Positions 3,183 through 61,300 of a stretch of 64,000 bases of DNA are shown one piece after another (the first letter of the stretch is position 1; the number at the start of each line of letters is the position of its first letter). The notes beneath the pieces were generated by a model. The model made no database searches, had not been told where the DNA came from, and saw only the letters and a list, made by a program, of their open reading frames with translations. The DNA lies in IMG/VR virus record IMGVR_UViG_2695420521_000002, positions 35,400 to 99,399 of that record, one strand, 5' to 3'. A program made the translations under genes and the position numbers. This DNA comes from a virus. Taxonomy: Duplodnaviria > Heunggongvirae > Uroviricota > Caudoviricetes.

Positions 3183-4226
3183 TTATCTAACGTTCGACGA
3201 GTGACTTGTGATAGCGCCGACTCCAAGCGCGTAATCAAAGAACAATCGTTGATGCATCGCCAGCCTACCGTGCGTCTTCTCCCAATTATCGCGGTCACGC
3301 TCAATATCACGCTGGCATGACTGGCACAGAGGAATAGCATAAATGTCATGCGCGCATAATCGACTATGACGAACGATATAAGGCGTAATGTGAGCGCCAG
3401 CTCCCGCAGCTCCACACCCACAGCATGGACGGGAAGCAACAAAGTCCATGTACTCAGGTAATTTTAGCGATTGCAGTTTTGGTATTTTGAAATGCGCCAT
3501 ACCTGGGTCGGAGTCAACATCCACTGGACATACTTTTGCGCGCATCGGCGCGGCACGTTCTTCCATCATCTGAACATATGCTGTAGCGCGATCGTCATAC
3601 GGGCGAATATCCGCCTCTTTCAGAGGTCCGCTATCCTGCGTTGCTGCCTTAATCTTATTTATTGATATACGGCAGACTTCTTCCGGCATCAAGTGCATCA
3701 TGTCGCGCATGAAAGCCCACCAGCACAGTTCCTGAATACTTAAATCATGGCCATCTGAAAGCCCCATTTCCTGACGGGCGACATCCAGTATCCAGTTAAC
3801 GCGATTATTATGCAGCGTTTCTTTCAGCTCATTAAAACCACGCATCCTGTAATGGTTATCGTGATGCCAGCACAACAACACCGCGCTATTGTCTCGTTCT
3901 GCGTGGACAATATGGTTGTCACACCAGCTACGATCTGCGGCCTGGCATTGCCCCTCTTTCCTGCGCAACCACGCCACCAGCGCGTCAATTCCACCAATAC
4001 GGCGAAACAGTTCATCGCTGTTAAAAAACGGCTGCAACGCCTCATTTGTTGCCATAGTTTGCTCGGAAACAACGAGGCCGTCGTCCATGTGCTCGATTAA
4101 CTCACGCGGCACCGGCTCCATAATAAATTTACGGCCAGCCTCCACCAGCTTTCTGACTTCCTGATCCACTTTGAATGTGGCGACGCCAAGCTCTTTTTGT
4201 ACAAAGGGAGTAATTACGGCTTTCAC
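3183..4226 (-). CDS. pdcB: PdcB-like protein (post-doc), unknown function, Cys-rich C-terminal region
   Basis: 347-aa ORF in operon position after doc-pdcA; symbol by synteny only. Confidence 0.5.
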
Positions 4227-34938: not shown

Positions 34939-36135
34939 ATGAGTGATTCCAGCCAGCTTCACAAGGTTGCTCAAAGAGCAAACAGAATGCTCAATGTTCT
35001 GACTGAACAAGTACAGTTGCAAAAGGATGAGCTACACGCGAACGAGTTTTACCAGGTCTATGCGAAAGCGGCACTGGCAAAATTGCCTCTACTGACTCGA
35101 GCGAACGTTGACTATGCCGTAAGTGAAATGGAAGAAAAGGGTTATGTTTTCGATAAACGCCCTGCTGGCTCTTCAATGAAATATGCGATGTCAATTCAGA
35201 ACATCATTGACATATATGAACATCGCGGAGTGCCAAAATACCGGGATCGCTACAGCGAAGCGTATGTGATTTTCATCTCCAATCTTAAAGGCGGTGTGTC
35301 AAAAACTGTATCGACGGTTTCTCTGGCGCATGCAATGCGTGCTCACCCTCATCTTCTGATGGAAGATTTAAGGATTCTGGTTATTGACCTTGATCCGCAA
35401 TCTTCAGCAACGATGTTTTTAAGCCATAAACACTCTATTGGTATCGTAAACGCAACATCTGCACAGGCTATGTTGCAGAATGTAAGCCGTGAAGAGCTGT
35501 TAGAGGAGTTTATTGTTCCTTCTGTTGTACCTGGGGTTGACGTTATGCCTGCGTCGATTGACGATGCCTTTATTGCATCCGATTGGAGAGAGCTGTGCAA
35601 TGAGCATCTACCGGGTCAGAACATCCATGCAGTCCTGAAAGAAAATGTGATTGATAAGCTGAAGAGCGATTATGACTTTATCCTCGTTGATAGTGGTCCT
35701 CACCTTGACGCCTTCCTGAAAAATGCTTTGGCCTCGGCCAATATACTGTTTACACCTCTGCCGCCTGCAACGGTTGATTTCCACTCATCGCTTAAATACG
35801 TTGCCCGCCTTCCTGAGTTGGTGAAACTCATTTCGGATGAAGGCTGCGAGTGCCAGCTTGCGACTAACATTGGTTTTATGTCCAAGTTGAGTAACAAGGC
35901 AGACCATAAATATTGCCATAGCCTGGCTAAAGAAGTGTTCGGTGGGGATATGCTTGATGTCGTCCTCCCTCGCCTTGACGGTTTTGAACGCTGCGGCGAG
36001 TCTTTTGACACTGTTATTTCAGCTAACCCGGCAACGTATGTTGGTAGTGCTGATGCATTGAAGAACGCGCGAATTGCCGCGGAAGATTTTGCAAAAGCAG
36101 TGTTTGACCGTATTGAATTTATCAGATCTAACTGA
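34939..36135 (+). CDS. parA: partition ATPase ParA
   Basis: 398 aa; deviant Walker A NLKGGVSKT. Confidence 0.9.
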   Translation: MSDSSQLHKVAQRANRMLNVLTEQVQLQKDELHANEFYQVYAKAALAKLPLLTRANVDYAVSEMEEKGYVFDKRPAGSSMKYAMSIQNIIDIYEHRGVPKYRDRYSEAYVIFISNLKGGVSKTVSTVSLAHAMRAHPHLLMEDLRILVIDLDPQSSATMFLSHKHSIGIVNATSAQAMLQNVSREELLEEFIVPSVVPGVDVMPASIDDAFIASDWRELCNEHLPGQNIHAVLKENVIDKLKSDYDFILVDSGPHLDAFLKNALASANILFTPLPPATVDFHSSLKYVARLPELVKLISDEGCECQLATNIGFMSKLSNKADHKYCHSLAKEVFGGDMLDVVLPRLDGFERCGESFDTVISANPATYVGSADALKNARIAAEDFAKAVFDRIEFIRSN

Positions 36136-37153: not shown

Positions 37154-37240
37154 ACTTTCGCCATTCAAATTTCACCATTAACTTACTGTTTTTAAAATAA
37201 AATCTTATAAAATTTCAAGGTGAAATCGCCACGATTTCAC
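37154..37240. other. parS: partition site parS (heptamer box A ATTTCAC and hexamer box B TCGCCA around an AT-rich centre)
   Basis: TCGCCATTCAAATTTCAC ... GGTGAAATCGCCACGATTTCAC. Confidence 0.75.
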
Positions 37241-37304
37241 CTTGGATTTTACCTTTCTCCCCTCTTCCCGAAAAAAATAAAAAAATTTCTTGTCACGAGA
37301 AAGT

Positions 37305-37327
37305 CAACAAGTGACTTTCAATAAAAT
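37305..37327 (+). promoter_or_regulatory. candidate Lpa-dependent late promoter
   Basis: CAACAAGTGACTTTCAATAAAAT; same architecture as motifs at 15627 and 49614. Confidence 0.45.
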
Positions 37328-37378
37328 CTCTTCCGAAAAGGGATTCACACAAGTGCCTTGTGTTTAAGGAAGAGTAAA

Positions 37379-39085
37379 TTGAGTAACTTACGCGAATACC
37401 AGAATCGTATTGCAGATATCGCAAAACGCTCTAAAGCTGTGCTTGGCTGGGCAAGCACTGCGCAGTTCGGTACTGATAACCAATTCATTAAAGATGATGC
37501 CGCGCGTGCCGCATCTATCCTTGAAGCTGCACGTAAAGACCCAATTTTTGCGGGTATCTCTGATAATGCCACCGCTCAAATCGCTACAGCGTGGGCAAGT
37601 GCACTGGCTGACTACGCCGCAGCACATAAATCTATGCCGCGTCCGGAAATTCTGGCCTCCTGCCACCAGACGCTGGAAAACTGCCTGATTGAGTCCACCC
37701 GAAATCGCATGGATGCCACTAATAAAGCGATGCTGGAATCCGTCGCAGCAGAGATGATGAGCGTTTCTGACGGTGTTATGCGTCTGCCTTTATTCCTCGC
37801 GATGATCCTGCCTGTTCAGTTGGGGGCAGCTACCGCTGATGCGTGTACATTCGTTCCGGTTGCGCGTGACAAGTCCGAAATCTATGAAATCTTTAACGTA
37901 GCGGGTTCTTCTTTTGGCTCTTATGCTATTGGTGATGTTCTGGACATGCAATCCGTTGGCGTGTACAGCCAGTTGCGCCGCCGCTATGTGCTGGTTGCAA
38001 GCTCCGACGGCACCAGCAAAACTGCAACCTTCAAGATGGAAGATTTCGAAGGTCAGAATGTCCCGATTCGCAAAGGTCGTACAAACATCTACGTTAACCG
38101 TATTAAGTCTGTTGTTGATAACGGCTCCGGTACTCTGCTTCACACATTCAATAACAAAGCAGGCGAACAAATCACTGTTACCTGCTCTTTGAATTACAAC
38201 ATTGGTCAGATTGTCCTGTCGTTCTCCAAAGCGCCAGATAAAGGTACAGAGATCGCCATTGAGGCGGAGATCAATATAGAAGCAGCTCCTGAGCTGATCC
38301 CACTTATCAACCACGAAATGAAGAGTTACACCCTGTTCCCAAACCAGTTCGTCATCGCGGCTGAGCACACGGTACAGGCGGCGTATGAAGCACAGCGTGA
38401 ATTTGGTCTGGATCTCGGCTCCCTACAGTTCCGCACCCTGAAGGAATACCTGTCCCATGAGCAAGATATGCTTCGTCTTCGTATCATGATTTGGCGAACT
38501 CTTGCGACCGACTCCTTTGATATTGCACTGCCAGCTAACCAGTCCTTTGATGTGTGGGCAACTATCGTTCGAGGCAAATTCCAGACGGTATATCGCGGTA
38601 TTATTGAGCGTGTTAGATCTTCTGGTGCGATGGGGATGTATGCCGGTGCTGATGCGGCATCTTTCTTCAAACAATTGCCGAAGGATTTCTTCCAGCCAGC
38701 AGAAGATTACATCCAGACCCCATACGTTCACTACATTGGCACTCTGTTCGGCAACGTCAAAGTGTTCGAAGTACCAGAAGGTATTTGTACGAACCTGACC
38801 GCCGACGGTATCCAGTTCAGCCCAATGGATGTGCTGTGCTACGTCCGTGATGAAAATCCGGGCAAAGCGGGCTTCGTAACTGGTGATGCAGTCCCGGCTG
38901 TCCCATTCCAGCATCCGACCACCCCTGCACTGGTCAACCGAACCACTCTGTGGGGTTCGGCTATCAACGATATGCACCCACGTAACGGCGCTGACTACTT
39001 CACCCGTGTAACTCTGACTATGGCCAAAAATGGCGGAATTAACTTCCTGACCGGTAACATGATTGATGCCGGTGACTCTGAGTAA
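37379..39085 (+). CDS. large phage structural protein (possibly major head protein precursor, gp23-like)
   Basis: About 569 aa from TTG 37379 (AAGGAAG SD); first gene after candidate late promoter; function by position only. Confidence 0.35.
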   Translation: MSNLREYQNRIADIAKRSKAVLGWASTAQFGTDNQFIKDDAARAASILEAARKDPIFAGISDNATAQIATAWASALADYAAAHKSMPRPEILASCHQTLENCLIESTRNRMDATNKAMLESVAAEMMSVSDGVMRLPLFLAMILPVQLGAATADACTFVPVARDKSEIYEIFNVAGSSFGSYAIGDVLDMQSVGVYSQLRRRYVLVASSDGTSKTATFKMEDFEGQNVPIRKGRTNIYVNRIKSVVDNGSGTLLHTFNNKAGEQITVTCSLNYNIGQIVLSFSKAPDKGTEIAIEAEINIEAAPELIPLINHEMKSYTLFPNQFVIAAEHTVQAAYEAQREFGLDLGSLQFRTLKEYLSHEQDMLRLRIMIWRTLATDSFDIALPANQSFDVWATIVRGKFQTVYRGIIERVRSSGAMGMYAGADAASFFKQLPKDFFQPAEDYIQTPYVHYIGTLFGNVKVFEVPEGICTNLTADGIQFSPMDVLCYVRDENPGKAGFVTGDAVPAVPFQHPTTPALVNRTTLWGSAINDMHPRNGADYFTRVTLTMAKNGGINFLTGNMIDAGDSE

Positions 39086-39146
39086 TCAGGGGAAGTTCTC
39101 CGTTTAACATAGCGCCCCCCGTGCGGGGCGCATAACAGGGAAAGTT

Positions 39147-40736
39147 ATGTCTCAATATTCAATTCAACAGTCATTAGGTAATGCATCCGGCGTCGCGGTT
39201 AGCCCGATCAATGCCGATGCGACGTTATCTACCGGTGTTGCATTAAATAGCAGCTTGTGGGCTGGTATTGGCGTATTTGCGCGTGGCAAGCCGTTTACTG
39301 TTCTTGCGGTTACTGAGTCCAATTACGAAGATGTTCTCGGCGAACCGCTGAAGCCGTCTTCCGGCTCACAGTTCGAACCAATTCGCCATGTGTACGAAGC
39401 TATTCAGCAAACGTCTGGTTATGTTGTCCGTGCTGTTCCGGATGATGCGAAGTTCCCGATTATTATGTTCGATGAATCAGGCGAACCGGCTTACAGTGCG
39501 TTGCCATATGGTTCTGAAATTGAACTTGATAGCGGCGAAGCCTTTGCTATCTACGTTGATGATGGTGATCCGTGTATTTCACCTACCCGTGAGTTAACCA
39601 TCGAAACGGCAACAGCGGACAGCGCGGGTAATGAACGCTTCCTCTTAAAACTGACCCAGACGACTTCGCTCGGTGTGGTAACGACCCTGGAGACACACAC
39701 TGTGTCTTTGGCGGAAGAAGCGAAAGATGACATGGGCCGCTTGTGTTATCTGCCTACGGCTCTGGAAGCCCGTTCTAAATATCTGCGCGCGGTTGTTAAT
39801 GAAGATCTGATTTCTACAGCGAAAGTAACAAACAAAAAATCGTTGGCGTTCACTGGTGGTACCAACGGTGATCAGTCGAAAATCTCAACCGCTGCGTACC
39901 TGCGTGCGGTGAAAGTGCTGAACAATGCTCCGTACATGTACACCGCTGTTCTTGGCCTGGGCTGCTATGACAATGCGGCTATCACCGCATTAGGTAAAAT
40001 CTGTGCAGATCGCCTGATTGATGGCTTCTTTGATGTCAAACCGACATTAACGTACGCAGAAGCCCTACCAGCTGTTGAGGATACCGGTTTACTTGGTACC
40101 GATTATGTAAGCTGTTCTGTATATCACTACCCGTTCTCCTGCAAAGACAAATGGACCCAATCCCGTGTGGTCTTTGGTCTGTCTGGCGTGGCGTATGCGG
40201 CGAAAGCTCGTGGCGTCAAGAAAAACTCTGATGTCGGCGGTTGGCATTACTCACCGGCTGGTGAAGAACGTGCCGTCATTGCTCGTGCGTCAATTCAACC
40301 GCTGTATCCGGAAGATACCCCAGACGAAGAAGCAATGGTCAAGGGCCGTCTCAATAAAGTATCTGTTGGCACCTCTGGCCAGATGATCATCGACGATGCT
40401 TTAACTTGCTGCACGCAGGATAACTATCTGCACTTCCAGCACGTCCCATCCCTGATGAATGCAATCAGCCGTTTCTTTGTCCAGTTAGCCCGACAGATGA
40501 AGCATAGCCCGGACGGTATTACTGCGGCTGGCCTGACTAAAGGGATGACCAAACTTTTAGATCGCTTTGTCGCCTCCGGCGCTCTGGTGGCTCCTCGTGA
40601 TCCTGATGCTGACGGTACAGAACCGTATGTGCTGAAAGTTACGCAGGCGGAATTCGATAAATGGGAAGTAGTCTGGGCCTGCTGCCCGACTGGCGTAGCC
40701 CGTCGTATCCAGGGCGTACCGCTGCTTATTAAGTAA
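39147..40736 (+). CDS. putative contractile tail sheath protein (gp22-like)
   Basis: 529-aa ORF in late structural operon; size and position consistent with a sheath subunit. Confidence 0.4.
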   Translation: MSQYSIQQSLGNASGVAVSPINADATLSTGVALNSSLWAGIGVFARGKPFTVLAVTESNYEDVLGEPLKPSSGSQFEPIRHVYEAIQQTSGYVVRAVPDDAKFPIIMFDESGEPAYSALPYGSEIELDSGEAFAIYVDDGDPCISPTRELTIETATADSAGNERFLLKLTQTTSLGVVTTLETHTVSLAEEAKDDMGRLCYLPTALEARSKYLRAVVNEDLISTAKVTNKKSLAFTGGTNGDQSKISTAAYLRAVKVLNNAPYMYTAVLGLGCYDNAAITALGKICADRLIDGFFDVKPTLTYAEALPAVEDTGLLGTDYVSCSVYHYPFSCKDKWTQSRVVFGLSGVAYAAKARGVKKNSDVGGWHYSPAGEERAVIARASIQPLYPEDTPDEEAMVKGRLNKVSVGTSGQMIIDDALTCCTQDNYLHFQHVPSLMNAISRFFVQLARQMKHSPDGITAAGLTKGMTKLLDRFVASGALVAPRDPDADGTEPYVLKVTQAEFDKWEVVWACCPTGVARRIQGVPLLIK

Positions 40737-40745
40737 GGGAATACA

Positions 40746-41561
40746 ATGAGCAAAAACTTTTTTCAATCCGGGGCATTTTTGGGGAATGGACTGTCTCGTT
40801 TCGCTTTGAACTCTGATCCTGTGCAGCTGATGGAGTCTGCCCGAGCAAGCGCCGAACCGCCAACAGATCCGGTTATTAATAATAATCCGGAACCGGCGGC
40901 ACAGACTAACGATAACGTTCCATCTGCCCCGGCTCCTGAGCAAATCCTGGAAGGGAAAGACGGTAAAGAATGGACCGTCGAACAGGCGCACCAGATGATT
41001 CTGGAAGCTGCAAATCGAAGTGCTATGCAGAATGCGTTGAGTGATGCGGCCGACGCCGTTTTCGCTTGGGCTGATAGCGGTGATCTGACTTTCGACTCCC
41101 TTGATGGTTTCGTTCAGGCTATCGCTGGTATCTCTGATGACGACGACTCCGAAGTGACAGAAGAACAGGACGATGCCTATAACGAAGCATGGGCAAATGT
41201 TGCTGACTTCCTCGCAGCATGCGGTGTAGATGATGACCTGATCGAAGCACTGGCTGACGATGAAGACGACGACGCAGCTGCTGATGTTGGTGCCTCTATC
41301 GCTGGTTTAGATAGCGACGACCGCGACGAACTGGAAGCTGCATTTGTTGTTGCTGGCACTTCTGATGAAATGCTGACTGAAGCATTTAAGAAGGTTGTTC
41401 GTAACGGTGAGATCAAACTCATCCGTAAACGCCTGCGTAAAAAACGTCTGACTGCGGCTCAAAAATCGGCGCTGAAAAAAGCGCGTCGAAAAGCCCAGAC
41501 TGGCGCGGCAAAACTTGCCCGCAAAAAGTCAATGAAACTGCGCCGTAAGCGCCTTGGCTAA
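40746..41561 (+). CDS. hypothetical protein, acidic body with Lys/Arg-rich C-terminal tail
   Basis: 271 aa; long DDDxE acidic stretches then KKRLTAAQKSALKKARRKAQ. Confidence 0.4.
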   Translation: MSKNFFQSGAFLGNGLSRFALNSDPVQLMESARASAEPPTDPVINNNPEPAAQTNDNVPSAPAPEQILEGKDGKEWTVEQAHQMILEAANRSAMQNALSDAADAVFAWADSGDLTFDSLDGFVQAIAGISDDDDSEVTEEQDDAYNEAWANVADFLAACGVDDDLIEALADDEDDDAAADVGASIAGLDSDDRDELEAAFVVAGTSDEMLTEAFKKVVRNGEIKLIRKRLRKKRLTAAQKSALKKARRKAQTGAAKLARKKSMKLRRKRLG

Positions 41562-41596
41562 AGGAGGAGGCCGGAGAACTCCGGCCTTTAACTTGA

Positions 41597-42178
41597 ATGG
41601 CTCCTATAGCTTATGGGGTTTACAGCCAGGCTGACGGTGTATCGCCATATCTGAAAGTTACTTTAACGAACTCTCAGTACCAGGTTACCGGATATATCAG
41701 CCAGGGGGCGGCAATGAACATGGCCCAGAATTGGGAAGCACCGTTTACTGGTATGTCCATGGGGTCTGTTTCTGGTGCTCTGGGTGGTTTTGTGCAAGTA
41801 GGTACTGAAACAACGTCGGTTGCCCGTTGGAATAGCTTAATGGTTTGGGAAGGGGGGACACCGCCGACGTTCACGCTGCCCGTAACTTTCATTGCTTTGA
41901 ACAATCCATTCATTGAAGTTTCAGGCGCTATCGCCGCGTTGACAGCCATGATTAGCCCGGAACTAAAAGCGGCCAATGTTGGTGGTCGAATCCCGGAGCG
42001 TGTGACACTAAACATTGGTCGCCGGATCAACATCACCGATGTCGCTATCCAGGACTTAAGTTTTGATCTCGATGCGCCAAGGGACAGTAATGGATATTTC
42101 CTGAAAAACACCGTCAACCTCCAGTTGACCGGTTCTTCGATATATAACAGCTCCGATATTGTTCGGGCGTTCCAGTAA
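41597..42178 (+). CDS. phage tail structural protein
   Basis: 193-aa ORF in structural operon. Confidence 0.35.
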   Translation: MAPIAYGVYSQADGVSPYLKVTLTNSQYQVTGYISQGAAMNMAQNWEAPFTGMSMGSVSGALGGFVQVGTETTSVARWNSLMVWEGGTPPTFTLPVTFIALNNPFIEVSGAIAALTAMISPELKAANVGGRIPERVTLNIGRRINITDVAIQDLSFDLDAPRDSNGYFLKNTVNLQLTGSSIYNSSDIVRAFQ

Positions 42179-42189
42179 AAGGATTTTAT

Positions 42190-42699
42190 ATGGGGCACAA
42201 TAACACTAAGGGAAACCGTAAATTTATTAAGGGCCGCTATACTGCCAACGCGGCCAAAGGCGAACGACTGGTATCTTCTGAATTCCAGCTCACTTTTGCA
42301 GGCTATGAAGATATCAGTGTACTGGTTCGTACGTCGCAAATCCCTGAAATGACTCGCGAGGATGTGGAGGACTATGGTCCGAATGGTGTGAAGTTCAACC
42401 AGCACGGACCAATTCGAAACTCTGGGGAAATCCAGGTCCAGTGCGTGGAGACTATCGAAGGCGATATTCTTCAGTTCATTAAGGATCGCATTGCGGCGAA
42501 GGACTATGTTGATATCACGATGGCTGCTACCCCTGAATCCAAATCTTCCGGGGTTAACGCTGTGACAAAAGCTGCTACAACAATTGAAATGTTGGACTGC
42601 AAAATCTACAGTGATGCAATCGACTTTAGTACCGAAGATGTGACTGCCGCTGTGCGCCCGTCACTTCGTATCGTCTACAACTGGATTGAGTGGGATTAA
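42190..42699 (+). CDS. putative tail tube protein
   Basis: 169-aa ORF; size and position typical of myovirus tube subunit. Confidence 0.35.
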   Translation: MGHNNTKGNRKFIKGRYTANAAKGERLVSSEFQLTFAGYEDISVLVRTSQIPEMTREDVEDYGPNGVKFNQHGPIRNSGEIQVQCVETIEGDILQFIKDRIAAKDYVDITMAATPESKSSGVNAVTKAATTIEMLDCKIYSDAIDFSTEDVTAAVRPSLRIVYNWIEWD

Positions 42700-42718: not shown

Positions 42719-42743
42719 AAAGCTCCTTCGGGAGCTTTTTTTA
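42719..42743 (+). terminator. intrinsic terminator after structural operon
   Basis: AGCTCC-TTCG-GGAGCT followed by TTTTTTT. Confidence 0.75.
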
Positions 42744-42870
42744 TAACCTTTTTATATAAAAATGCATCGATAACATTGTCTGGAGTTTTATGTTAGATTA
42801 TTAATGTTCTAATAAACTACAATTATTGAGGTAGATGTTTGTGCCTGTACTGTTAAAGGGGGACTCTAAA

Positions 42871-43898: not shown

Positions 43899-43957
43899 AA
43901 CGAATATCGCCAGAGCAATGTATAAATCCCTCTGCGCCGGGCAGAGGGACTAAATAG

Positions 43958-46315: not shown

Positions 46316-46392
46316 TTTTCTAGCTCGATCCAGATCGGGTTGGTCGATCTGCTCAGAAACCTGCCAGTTTGCTGGCAGGTTTTTTTCTTTTG

Positions 46393-57848: not shown

Positions 57849-57926
57849 TAATCACCCCGTCCGCAGGGCGGGGTGACAAGTTACTTCTCTTACAATGAGG
57901 CTTCACAACATTGATTAGGGAAAATC

Positions 57927-58372: not shown

Positions 58373-61300
58373 ATGAATGACGTTACAGTTGTTACATCAG
58401 TTACTTACCCATCGCCCGAGTCACTGGCTCTGGTGGCTGATGTGCAATACCACGAACCATATCTGTCAGCCGCGCTAAACCGAAAATTCAGGGGAATTGT
58501 TGACCCTGGATTTTATGCAGGTTTCTTGCCGAAGCCTGGCGGTGGGATGAACCTGTTAATCACCTCAGTGGATGGTGATAAAACTGCTGGCGCTGCGTCA
58601 GTGGATATTGGTGAATTCTACCAGGTAACTATTCAGCACCGTAAGGATATTTCTCTTGCACTTAGTGCAGGCAAGAAATATGCAATTGTGCTGAAGGGAA
58701 GATACCTCCTTGGAGAGGATACCTATCAGGTTAATACCGCGTCACATATTCATGCGGCTGAATTTGTTGCCAGAACCTATACCGATTCATATCAGTTAGG
58801 AGATGGGGAGCTGCTTGTTTGTACGGTGAATATCCCTGCTGGCGTATCAGCCATTACCCAGGAGATGATTGATACATCCGAGCGTATTAACCGCACGATC
58901 GGCATTGATATTTCAGACTCTGTAACCAGTAGCAGAAGTGATGTTGCGGCAAGTTCGCTGGCAGTTAAAAAAGCCTACGATCTGGCGAAAAGTAAGTATA
59001 CGGCGCAGGATGCAAGCACAACGCAAAAGGGATTAGTTCAGCTCAGTAGCGAAACTAACAGCGACAGCGAAACAATGGCTGCTACCCCTAAAGCAGTTAA
59101 GTCTGTAAAAGATCTTGCTGATACCAAAGCGCCAATAGAAAGCCCGAGTCTGACAGGAACGCCAACCGCGCCGACGGCAGCGCAAGGTACAAATAGCACG
59201 CAGATCGCAAATACAGCCTTTGTTAAGGCAGCTATAACGGCACTTATCAACGGCGCACCTGGCACACTGGATACGCTTAAAGAAATAGCTGCTGCGATCA
59301 ATAACGACCCGAATTTCAGCACAACTATCAACAATGCTCTGGCTCTTAAAGCTCCTTTAGCAAGTCCTGCATTAACGGGAATACCTACTGCGCCTACCGC
59401 TGCACAGGGTACGAATAACACGCAGATTGCTACGACCGCTTATGTAAGAGCTGCCATATCCGCATTGGTTGGTTCATCACCAGAAGCTCTTGATACCCTG
59501 AATGAGCTTGCCGCAGCACTTGGTAATGACCCTAACTTTGCGACAACAATGACAAATGCGCTGGCAGGCAAACAGCCTCTGGATGCAACTTTAACCGCGC
59601 TTGCTGGTCTTGCGACAGGCGCAAATAAATTGCCGTACTTTACCGGTACAGACACTGTTTCTCAGACAGACTTAACGTCAGTCGGTCGCGATATTCTGGC
59701 CAAAACAAGCGTTCTTGCTGTTATCCAATACCTTGGTTTAAGAGAACTCGGTACCAGCGGTGAAAAGATCCCCCTGTTGAGCACGGCTAACACATGGAGT
59801 GCACGCCAGACTTTCAACGGCGGGATCACCGGCGCACTGACGGGGAACGCCGACACCGCAACGAAATTAAAAACAGCGCGGAAGATTAACAACGTTTCAT
59901 TTGACGGTTCTGCGGACATAACGCTGACTCCTGCGAACCTTGACGTATACAGCAAAAGCGAAATAGACAATAAAAAAGGGATGCGTAAATACACGCTTAC
60001 TGCACCATCTGGTGCAGTAAGTGGTAAGTGGTATCCCGTAGTTTTTCGTCGTTCATCTGGCGGTAATAGCGAGCTGGCATCGAGAGTGGTTATCACGACG
60101 GCATCAACCACTGGTAATTTCGCAATGAATAACTGCGAATTTAACGGGATGGTTATGTCCGGTGGCTGGTCAGACAGGGGGTCATATGCTGCTGGTTATT
60201 TCTGGACGTATCAGGCGGATGAGCGGGCTATTCACTCCATCATCTCAGGTGTTAAAGATGATGACAGGAGCTGCGTTTTTTACGTTGAAGCCAGAGCATT
60301 CCCGATACAGGTCTTTGCCGAAGAAGGTCTGAGCGTTGTACTTCCGACAGAAGATTACACGCTCGGACAGAGCACGTACAAATGGGGTGTAACAGACCCG
60401 GCGGCGGAAAGCACAAACGTACAGACGATTCTGGATTTTAAAGATGGGCGTGGTTATTACTGCTCGCATCCGTTTATTTCAAGCCTTTCAGGGAATGCAG
60501 CAACCGCAACGAAACTTGCAACGGCAAGAAAGATTTCAGGTGTGGCTTTTGATGGTTCTGCCGATATTACATTAACTGCTGAACATGTATCAGCATTTGC
60601 TCTACGTGCGACGGGGGCTTATGCGGATTCGGATGGGGCAGTTCCCTGGAATGCTGAATCCGGCGCATATAATGTCACGCGTTCTGGCGACTCCTATCTT
60701 GTTGCAAACTTTTATACCGGTGTCGGGAGTTGCCGTACTCTCCAGATTCGCGCGCATTACAAGAATGGCGGTCTGTTTTACCGTTCTTCACGTGATGGTT
60801 ATGGCTTTGAGGAAGACTGGACTCAGATTTATACCAAAAAAGACAGCATCCCGGGTGTTAATACGACCGGCGACCAGAATACAACGGGTAATGCGGCAAC
60901 AGCCACAAAACTGCAAACAGCGCGTACCATTAATGGAGTCTCATTTGACGGTTCTAAAAACATTACGCTAACTCCAAGGTCTATAGGCACGATCAACTCA
61001 ACAACCATGTCTTTTAGTGGTGGTGCCGGATGGTTCAAACTGGCAACTGTAACAATGCCACAAGCCAGTTCTGTGGTTTACATAAGCCTGATTGGTGGCG
61101 CAGGGTTTAACGTTGGCTCCCCGCATCAAGCAGGCATCTCTGAGCTGGTTCTGCGTGCCGGAAATGGAAATCCAAACGGTATTACTGGTGCATTATGGCG
61201 ACGGACCTCGGTTGGATTTACTAATTTTGCATGGGTGAATACATCCGGTGATACCTATGACATTTATGTAGAAATAGGTAATTACGCCACAGGTGTTAAT

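Follow-up and report, generated by a model that had tools for sequence, protein, structure and literature searches.

The junction between the capsid and sheath genes

The DNA analysed here is a stretch of 64,000 nucleotides (nt) from IMG/VR virus record IMGVR_UViG_2695420521_000002 (positions 35,400 to 99,399 of that record), referred to below as the window, and it belongs to a P1-like phage-plasmid. The region of interest is 95% identical in nucleotide sequence to bacteriophage P1, and shows 93-98% nucleotide identity to other P1-like phages and phage-plasmids. It carries the major capsid gene, gene 23 of P1, followed by the tail sheath gene, gene 22. The 61-nt gap between the gene 23 stop codon (TAA, 39083-39085) and the gene 22 ATG, which starts at 39147, holds a compact GC-rich hairpin, the subject of this study. 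The gap reads TCAGGGGAAGTTCTCCGTTTAACATA-GCGCCCC-CCGTGC-GGGGCGC-ATAACAGGGAAAGTT, and the features in and around it are the following.

37309-37327, plus strand: late promoter LP23, with a -22 box AAGTGACTT at 37309-37317 and a -10 element TAAAAT at 37322-37327; identical to LP23 of P1 (AF234172), where it is predicted
37379-39085, plus strand: gene 23, major capsid protein, 568 amino acids plus stop (569 codons); 95% nucleotide identity to P1 gene 23; PHROG 1014, E 9e-244
39089-39101, plus strand: small, weak hairpin GGGGA-agt-TCTCC in the 5' spacer, predicted
39112-39131, plus strand: gene 23/22 hairpin; 5' arm 39112-39118 GCGCCCC, loop 39119-39124 CCGTGC, 3' arm 39125-39131 GGGGCGC
39137-39144, plus strand: Shine-Dalgarno region of gene 22, purine-rich AGGGAAAG, read from the sequence, beginning 5 nt past the stem
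39147-40736, plus strand: gene 22, tail sheath protein, 529 amino acids; PHROG 1036 (tail sheath), E 2e-230

A preliminary description of this DNA, made from the sequence alone, had placed a GCGCCCC/GGGGCGC stem of 7 base pairs (bp), all of them G-C, within 39105-39135, between a 569-amino-acid gene and a sheath-like gene. The stem sequence is as it was described, pairing 39112-39118 with 39125-39131, and the sheath-like gene is indeed P1 gene 22; the length given for the product of the other gene, P1 gene 23, has to be corrected to 568 amino acids, the remaining codon being the stop.

The seven G-C pairs enclose a loop of 6 nt, and the stem begins 26 nt past the gene 23 TAA and ends 15 nt short of the gene 22 ATG. 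The 8 nt on its 3' side are ATAACAGG, with a single T. Folded alone, the hairpin has a predicted energy of -14.8 kcal/mol, and of -16.5 kcal/mol in a 26-nt window, which places it in the top dozen or so of the compact hairpins of the 64 kb by stability. Pair probabilities are 0.86-0.99 in contexts of 160 and 320 nt, where the hairpin is the dominant local fold, and fall to 0.39 in a context of 520 nt; the latter value reflects competing pairings with coding regions, which ribosomes would disrupt in vivo.

The hairpin is the sole perfect all-GC 7-bp stem with a loop of 3-8 nt in the window, and dinucleotide shuffles of the window contain a mean of 0.09 such stems (at least one in 7 of 100 shuffles). 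Since folding of the entire 61-nt gap has a z-score of only -1.5 relative to shuffles, this one sequence alone would not convince, and it is the comparative data that lift the hairpin above chance. Perfect 7-bp stems of any composition with loops of 3-8 nt are themselves about three times more frequent in the window than in dinucleotide shuffles (76 vs 25.7 +/- 5.4). Other very stable compact hairpins lie at 57852-57877 (-20.9 kcal/mol), 43925-43950, 59996-60021, 29578-29603, 46357-46382 and 20431-20456, and most of them look like unidirectional or bidirectional terminators. The small hairpin at 39089-39101 was considered as a part of the element and rejected: it is absent in Cronobacter phage JK004 and in more distant relatives, and three uncompensated substitutions in the P1 clade (39089 G>C, 39090 G>A, 39093 A>T) disrupt one pair each. 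It is probably non-functional.

Conservation of the pairing in relatives

The gap was extracted from 162 loci of the P1 clade, which represent 29 haplotypes. None of the 14 arm positions carries a substitution in these loci, and variation is found in 4 of the 6 loop positions, in 7 of 41 spacer sites and in 38 of 235 sites of the flanking coding DNA; the C-run is polymorphic in length, giving loops of 4, 5 or 6 nt. To avoid a bias in the choice of loci, metagenomes were scanned with a pattern that fixed the flanks only and left the hairpin free. Both arms were kept in 49 of the 49 contigs retrieved in this way, which display five loop variants (CGTGC, GTGC, CGCGC, CGTAC and TGCTC). Across about 207 flank-anchored P1-clade copies the arms are unchanged and seven loop variants occur, a pattern of purifying selection on the arms only.

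The loop of the window, CCGTGC, is in none of the approximately 207 other P1-clade copies. The C-run of the window (39116-39121) is one C longer than that of P1, hence the 6-nt loop, and copies one C shorter, with a 4-nt loop, make up 13 of the 49 metagenomic contigs. These changes in length look like homopolymer slippage, tolerated because only the loop is altered.

A more distant set was assembled from elements with capsid proteins 33-81% identical to that of the window, comprising phages JK004 and D6 and plasmids or contigs from Citrobacter, Serratia, Pantoea, Buttiauxella, Enterobacter, Rosenbergiella and Vibrio. The helix was extracted from each sequence and compared within clades, and this procedure replaced automatic alignment. 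RNAalifold on an automatic alignment of 23 divergent gaps had returned no consensus structure, and on 15 gaps of the GCGCCCC type it returned only 4 mis-registered pairs, because MAFFT puts loop-length indels inside the arms. A search of Rfam 15 covariance models gave no match at 39086-39146, even at E-values up to 1.

A hairpin of 7-11 bp, with energies between -12.5 and -20 kcal/mol, lies directly after the capsid gene in 22 of 22 distinct lineages; that of D6 comes after a 34-codon open reading frame (ORF) overlapping the capsid stop codon. The stem sequences are unrelated across lineages such as Citrobacter, Vibrio, Pantoea and E. kobei, as the following hairpins illustrate.

JK004: GCGCCCC-uucg-GGGGCGC
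Citrobacter: AGCGGCAUCU-gaau-AGGUGCCGCU
Vibrio: GAGCGGGUAAC-uacg-GUUGCCCGUUC
E. kobei: CCCCGGC-aua-GCCGGGG
Pantoea: CCCCCUUAACG-cccc-CGUUAAGGGGG

Between closer relatives, compensation can be followed step by step, from GCGCCCC/GGGGCGC in JK004, through GCGCCCU/GGGGCGC with a U.G pair in locus L178, to GCGCCCU/AGGGCGC with a U-A pair in locus L180. A change of C-G to U.G is also seen between L094 and L191 and between L099 and L090, and one of A-U to G-C between the two Citrobacter elements L084 and L092. The loops vary freely and are sometimes extra-stable tetraloops of the UNCG type, C(UUCG)G in JK004 and C(UACG)G in Vibrio, and for this reason the comparison points to selection for stability and not for a recognition sequence. 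Conservation in relatives had been proposed in the preliminary description as a check on the element, and the element passed it strongly, given the invariant arms of the P1 clade and a structure that persists across the P1/D6 supergroup despite a complete turnover of the sequence, with changes that are compensated.

The pairing is also better preserved on the sense strand. Over the 22 lineages, the main stems contain 14 G.U pairs on the sense (plus) strand and 3 on the antisense (minus) strand; the mean helix is 8.9 bp on the plus strand vs 7.7 bp on the minus strand, and the mean energy is -15.9 vs -13.9 kcal/mol (Wilcoxon p = 0.044, for lineages that are not independent). Stark contrasts between strands are seen, for example, in Vibrio (-16.5 vs -4.3 kcal/mol) and L191 (-14.2 vs -4.0 kcal/mol). 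Whole-gap folding energies are more stable on the plus strand in 13 of the 22 lineages and on the minus strand in 9, an ambiguous outcome; G.U pairs and helix length in the main stem discriminate better between the strands. Taken together, the comparative data indicate that the hairpin is real and is under selection as a sense-strand RNA structure.

Its position is fixed more tightly on the downstream side. The distance from the stem to the next start codon has a median of 15 nt (standard deviation 3.8) and lies between 10 and 20 nt in 21 of the 22 lineages, and that from the capsid stop codon to the stem has a median of 11 nt (standard deviation 8.1, range 1-30 nt). The Shine-Dalgarno stretch ACAGGGAAAGTTATG is kept in P1, JK004 and L178, and shows one substitution in L097 (ACAGGGAATGTTATG).

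Some relatives carry additional genes at this junction. Phage D6 (L083 2010-2503) has the small ORFs orf50 and orf49 between capsid and sheath, each followed by a hairpin of its own, and another hairpin between the sheath gene and the next gene. In the Vibrio plasmid pTHAF191c_d (L085 2086-2514), a gene with the annotation of an RNA polymerase alpha C-terminal-domain protein is placed between capsid and sheath. The post-capsid hairpin still adjoins the capsid gene in both cases. In a Kluyvera cryocrescens contig (L089) and an IMG/VR contig (L168), the capsid frame stops at the same site, at about position 3499 of the locus and about 1 kb into the gene, which may reflect an error of assembly, or else a frameshift or pseudogene common to both.

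The late operon and the possible role of the hairpin

In the P1 record, genes 23 and 22 are located downstream of parA-parB-parS and LP23, and are followed on the same strand by gene 21, pmgG and bplB. The corresponding features of the window are the following.

40746-41561, plus strand: gene 21, 271 amino acids; PHROG 1053 (function not assigned); 9-nt unstructured junction to gene 22
41566-41589, plus strand: second intercistronic hairpin, between gene 21 and pmgG, GGAGGCCGGA-gaac-TCCGGCCTTT, 10 bp (2 of them G.U), followed by AACTTGA, without a full U-tract
41597-42178, plus strand: pmgG, tube-linking protein (role from PMC12810830)
42190-42699, plus strand: bplB, tail tube protein (role from PMC12810830); 11-nt unstructured junction to pmgG
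42719-42745, plus strand: canonical intrinsic terminator at the end of the operon, AAAGCTCC-ttcg-GGAGCTTT with TTTTTTT on its 3' side, found in the terminator scan

LP23 is the only late-promoter-like site upstream of the genes from 23 to bplB. A motif search gave no other late-promoter match on the plus strand between 37327 and 45380, and no sigma-70-like site was found on the plus strand at 37198-42584; the promoters annotated for pmgF, inside bplB, are the sole exception to a promoter-free stretch between LP23 and the end of bplB. With LP23 as their one promoter, none internal, and no terminator until after bplB, the five genes 23-22-21-pmgG-bplB therefore appear, from their sequence, to form one late transcription unit. 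The bplB terminator has equivalents in JK004 and in the Vibrio plasmid. A sub-threshold Rfam match to the small RNA STnc130 at 42719-42756 on the minus strand (33.9 bits vs a gathering score of 55, and only to the 3' hairpin part of the model) coincides with this terminator and almost certainly is mere terminator similarity. At the other end of the unit, between parB and LP23, the parS palindrome (37214-37246, TTCAAGGTGAAATCG-cca-CGATTTCACCTTGGA followed by TTTTACC) is terminator-like on both strands in the terminator scan, and could also restrict transcription running on from the par operon into gene 23.

The G-C-rich hairpin at the junction of gene 21 and pmgG has equivalents in JK004, D6, E. 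kobei and Citrobacter, the Citrobacter copy with a full T-run, and was not found in the Vibrio plasmid. It pairs 41566-41575 with 41580-41589 and is placed between the only GGAGG of that gap (41563-41570, overlapping the 5' arm in part) and the ATG of pmgG at 41597. The 7 nt 3' of this stem lack a purine run, and the layout in JK004 is the same (L082 4911-4951). The hairpin could bring the Shine-Dalgarno sequence of pmgG near the start codon, or the start codon could be mis-set. In phage T4, the Shine-Dalgarno sequence of gene 38 has been reported to be brought near the start codon by a hairpin.

Several known classes of element were compared with the gene 23/22 hairpin and set aside. It has the G-C-rich stem and short loop of an intrinsic terminator, and lacks the U-tract of about 7-9 nt. 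A U-tract is a defining requirement of intrinsic termination in the model that combines a hairpin, a U-tract and the bubble edge (bioRxiv 10.64898/2026.05.29.728758). The preliminary description had judged an intrinsic terminator unlikely from the missing U-tract, and the sequences bear this out: the 8 nt 3' of the stem contain one T in the window and 0-2 T in 18 of the 22 lineages, and the site was missed on both strands by a terminator scan with a threshold of at least 5 T in 8 nt. Nor would an efficient terminator be expected at this position, because termination would cut off essential, promoterless tail genes. A terminator acting on the antisense strand was considered and rejected; the site is absent from the scan on either strand. 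A repetitive extragenic palindromic (REP) element does not fit, there being one copy in the 64-kb window, to which the count was confined, even with 2 mismatches allowed, no shared consensus, and stems that differ between relatives. A T7-type RNase III site was also rejected, the stem of 7 bp here and of 7-11 bp in relatives being too short; RNase III processing needs roughly at least 20 bp of double-stranded RNA. A sequence-specific operator was discarded because pairing alone is conserved. The GenBank record of P1 annotates nothing in the gene 23/22 gap and no terminators in the 17 kb inspected, not even after bplB, and since the canonical bplB terminator is also unannotated, this silence says nothing about novelty.

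Studies of host operons have described two ways in which an intercistronic hairpin can act on mRNA decay. In the malEFG type, an endonuclease first cuts downstream of a stem-loop that lies 3' of a cistron; 3'-to-5' exonucleases are then blocked at the stem-loop, and the upstream cistron is thereby stabilised (PMC5927463). In the papBA type, RNase E cuts just 5' of the hairpin, which then protects the downstream cistron (PMC5927463). The mechanism is an established one in the same host, and E. coli, Salmonella and Enterobacter share conserved 3' protective structures that follow the more stable cistron (PMC5927463). By analogy, we tentatively favour the view that the gene 23/22 hairpin is a malEFG-type 3' decay barrier that would favour capsid mRNA over sheath mRNA. 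Like those barriers, it is a stem-loop inside a polycistronic unit, downstream of gene 23, with a structure conserved beyond its sequence. The P1 virion contains 775 copies of gp23 and 318 copies of gp22, the latter as 53 hexameric rings (PMC12810830). The malEFG type is preferred because gp23 is needed in excess and because the 5' spacer contains no RN|WUU motif of RNase E in any of 11 lineages (the window and 10 others), the latter being weak evidence for so degenerate a motif. Within about the first 20 nt of the downstream ORF, the same motif occurs in 8 of the 11 lineages, and, being degenerate and frequent, it constitutes weak evidence there.

With the structure, position, conservation and sense-strand bias of the hairpin established, together with its lack of terminator features, we infer a course of events made up of read-through, cleavage, exonuclease stalling and an effect on the protein ratio. 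Since the stem has no U-tract, the host RNA polymerase would read through it and transcribe the promoterless tail genes behind. The polycistronic mRNA would then be cut downstream, for instance by RNase E acting in the 5' part of gene 22, which is poorly protected, and polynucleotide phosphorylase (PNPase) as well as RNase II, degrading 3'-to-5', would stall at the G-C stem. A translatable gene 23 mRNA would remain and outlive the distal cistrons, so that capsid output would be raised over sheath output. In addition, the stem, ending 5 nt before the gene 22 Shine-Dalgarno sequence, may lower initiation on gene 22.

A number of observations weigh against the decay barrier. With 7 bp, the stem is near the lower limit of those known to stall PNPase. 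The strand-bias statistics are modest, with whole-gap energies favouring the plus strand in only 13 of 22 lineages that are not independent, and the tighter spacing on the side of the downstream start codon would be explained at least equally well by a role in 5' protection or in the translation of gene 22. The preliminary description had suggested that the element sets the stoichiometry of the two flanking products, an idea that fits the published excess of gp23 over gp22; the rest of the operon does not follow. The idea of an abundance staircase, with a hairpin after each abundant product, was rejected: gp21 is not among the virion proteins listed in PMC9024508 or PMC12810830, and BplB, with 312 copies, is encoded by the last gene, behind PmgG with 6 (PMC12810830). 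There is thus no 5'-to-3' staircase, and as bplB lies behind both pmgG and the second hairpin, the stability of mRNA segments can explain the product ratios only in part, and much of the stoichiometry must therefore be due to translation efficiency. No step at the hairpin could be read from the available P1 RNA-seq table, since sampling was at 0, 10 and 20 min, the values are fold-changes and not coverage, and late genes were barely on (bioRxiv 10.64898/2025.12.28.696737, Table S1). At 20 min, the log2 fold-change was 3.1 for gene 23 (not significant), 0 for gene 22 and 9.1 for parB (bioRxiv 10.64898/2025.12.28.696737), and, gene 23 lying just downstream of the strongly expressed parA-parB, any read-through from these would raise its signal.

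The spacing leads to a papBA-type or ribosome-binding-site (RBS) explanation, in which RNase E would cut the A/U-rich 5' spacer CGUUUAACAUA and the hairpin protect the 5' end of the 22-21-pmgG-bplB mRNA, or the stem would insulate or tune the gene 22 RBS, possibly alongside a barrier role. It would account for a stem-to-ATG distance held at 10-20 nt in nearly all lineages, against a stop-to-stem distance ranging over 1-30 nt, and for the hairpin preceding whichever gene follows, orf49 in D6 and the alpha C-terminal-domain gene in the Vibrio plasmid; papBA-type and dual translational roles are, moreover, documented in E. coli operons (PMC5927463). The 5' spacer, however, offers the RN|WUU motif in 0 of 11 lineages, a stabilised downstream segment would shift the ratio the wrong way when capsid is needed in 2.4-fold excess, and the short 3' spacer is perhaps just the minimum for a Shine-Dalgarno sequence in a compact genome. 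We regard this explanation as plausible but unlikely. We are more doubtful still of a leaky attenuator, whereby the stem would pause or terminate a minority of RNA polymerases despite the absent U-tract and fewer transcripts would reach gene 22. A G-C-rich stem with a loop of 3-8 nt between cistrons, after the most abundant product, is what such an attenuator would look like, and partial T-runs do occur in a few relatives (Buttiauxella L096 GCGGGCAT-TTTCAG, L186 CCCTTTTCGG and Pantoea CATTTCAT); the full T-run at the second hairpin of Citrobacter even suggests that hairpin and terminator are interchangeable there in evolution. Against this stand the U-tract requirement (bioRxiv 10.64898/2026.05.29.728758) in the face of 1 T in 8 nt here and 0-2 T in most lineages, the failure of the site in the terminator scan on both strands, and the absence of a U-tract through complete turnover of the sequence, which looks like selection against termination.

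A perfect inverted repeat could in principle be read on the DNA, as a protein site or cruciform, or by a phage or host protein as a sequence-specific RNA operator, and in the P1 clade whole-gap energies are similar on both strands. Such a role appears very improbable, given that stems are unrelated between lineages and loops vary within the P1 clade, leaving no conserved recognition sequence, that G.U pairs and U.G intermediates keep pairing only in the sense RNA, and that the hairpin is single-copy in the window and has no Rfam match. A chance palindrome without function would be consistent with the gap z-score of only -1.5 and with the all-GC 7-bp stems found in 7 of 100 shuffled windows, but all 22 lineages have the same structure at this junction, with changes that are compensated, and the arms are free of substitutions in about 207 copies whose loops and flanks vary, which effectively refutes this reading on comparative grounds, and we give it next to no credence.

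The decay barrier and an effect on translation may also be parts of one device. We consider it a speculative and rather improbable proposal that the hairpin and the adjacent RBS form one conserved module of P1/D6-type phage-plasmids, an exonuclease barrier for capsid mRNA combined with obstruction of a standby site, and that together with the second hairpin it makes up a structure-coded stoichiometry device. Fewer ribosomes on the next gene would then expose it to RNase E and so provide the cleavage that the barrier needs, and the hairpin at 41566-41589, between GGAGG and the pmgG start, would complete a hard-wired control of stoichiometry.

E. coli genetics relies heavily on P1, and resistance genes are commonly carried by P1-like phage-plasmids. 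The hairpin represents a clean, conserved and easily mutated handle on how late operons set the ratios of virion proteins, for which the natural variants, from -12.5 to -20 kcal/mol, constitute a ready-made allelic series. In synthetic operons, it could also be used as a compact, terminator-free part to tune expression ratios. The interpretation offered in the preliminary description, a stability or processing element, was a reasonable one and is partly supported.

Comparison with known systems

The hairpin is a well-conserved new case of an established type of bacterial element; it contributes a phage case to a mechanism that studies of host operons have documented well, and opens no new field. 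The closest parallel is found in malE-malF and the other 3' protective structures of E. coli (PMC5927463), where, as here, a non-terminator stem-loop separates a 5' cistron needed in larger amount from distal cistrons, is conserved among relatives and occurs in the same host with the same RNases. Several such hairpins can occur in one operon, as in menBCE (PMC5927463) and at 39112 and 41566 in the window. The malE-malF element differs in being a REP repeat with many genomic copies, whereas the P1 hairpin is single-copy and phage-borne; many of the E. coli examples are inside the downstream ORF and that of P1 is intergenic; and the function demonstrated for malE-malF is, for P1, inferred. The papBA operon, also enterobacterial, likewise has an intercistronic hairpin just 5' of the RBS of a gene for a structural protein, but in pap it is the downstream gene product that is abundant, whereas in P1 the upstream product is the more abundant and the 5' spacer has no RN|WUU site. 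The terminator at 42719-42745 shares with the hairpin a G-C-rich stem, a short loop and the sense strand, and differs from it in its U-tract, the hairpin having 1 T in 8 nt and an essential, promoterless gene 15 nt further on.

Other phages provide parallels as well. Intercistronic C(UUCG)G hairpins were reportedly described in phage T4 by Tuerk et al. in 1988. These were selected for extreme stability, and in the present family JK004 has C(UUCG)G on a P1-type stem and the Vibrio relative C(UACG)G, whereas the loops of the window (CCGUGC) and of P1 (CGUGC) are not UNCG tetraloops. Terminators or attenuators behind major capsid genes are known in other phages, for example T-phi of T7, after gene 10, and the terminator of f1, after gene VIII. 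They resemble the P1 hairpin in directly following the gene of the most abundant virion protein, presumably so that capsid is expressed more highly than the genes downstream. Unlike the hairpin, which has no terminator features, they are true terminators with U-tracts, or are specific to other polymerases.

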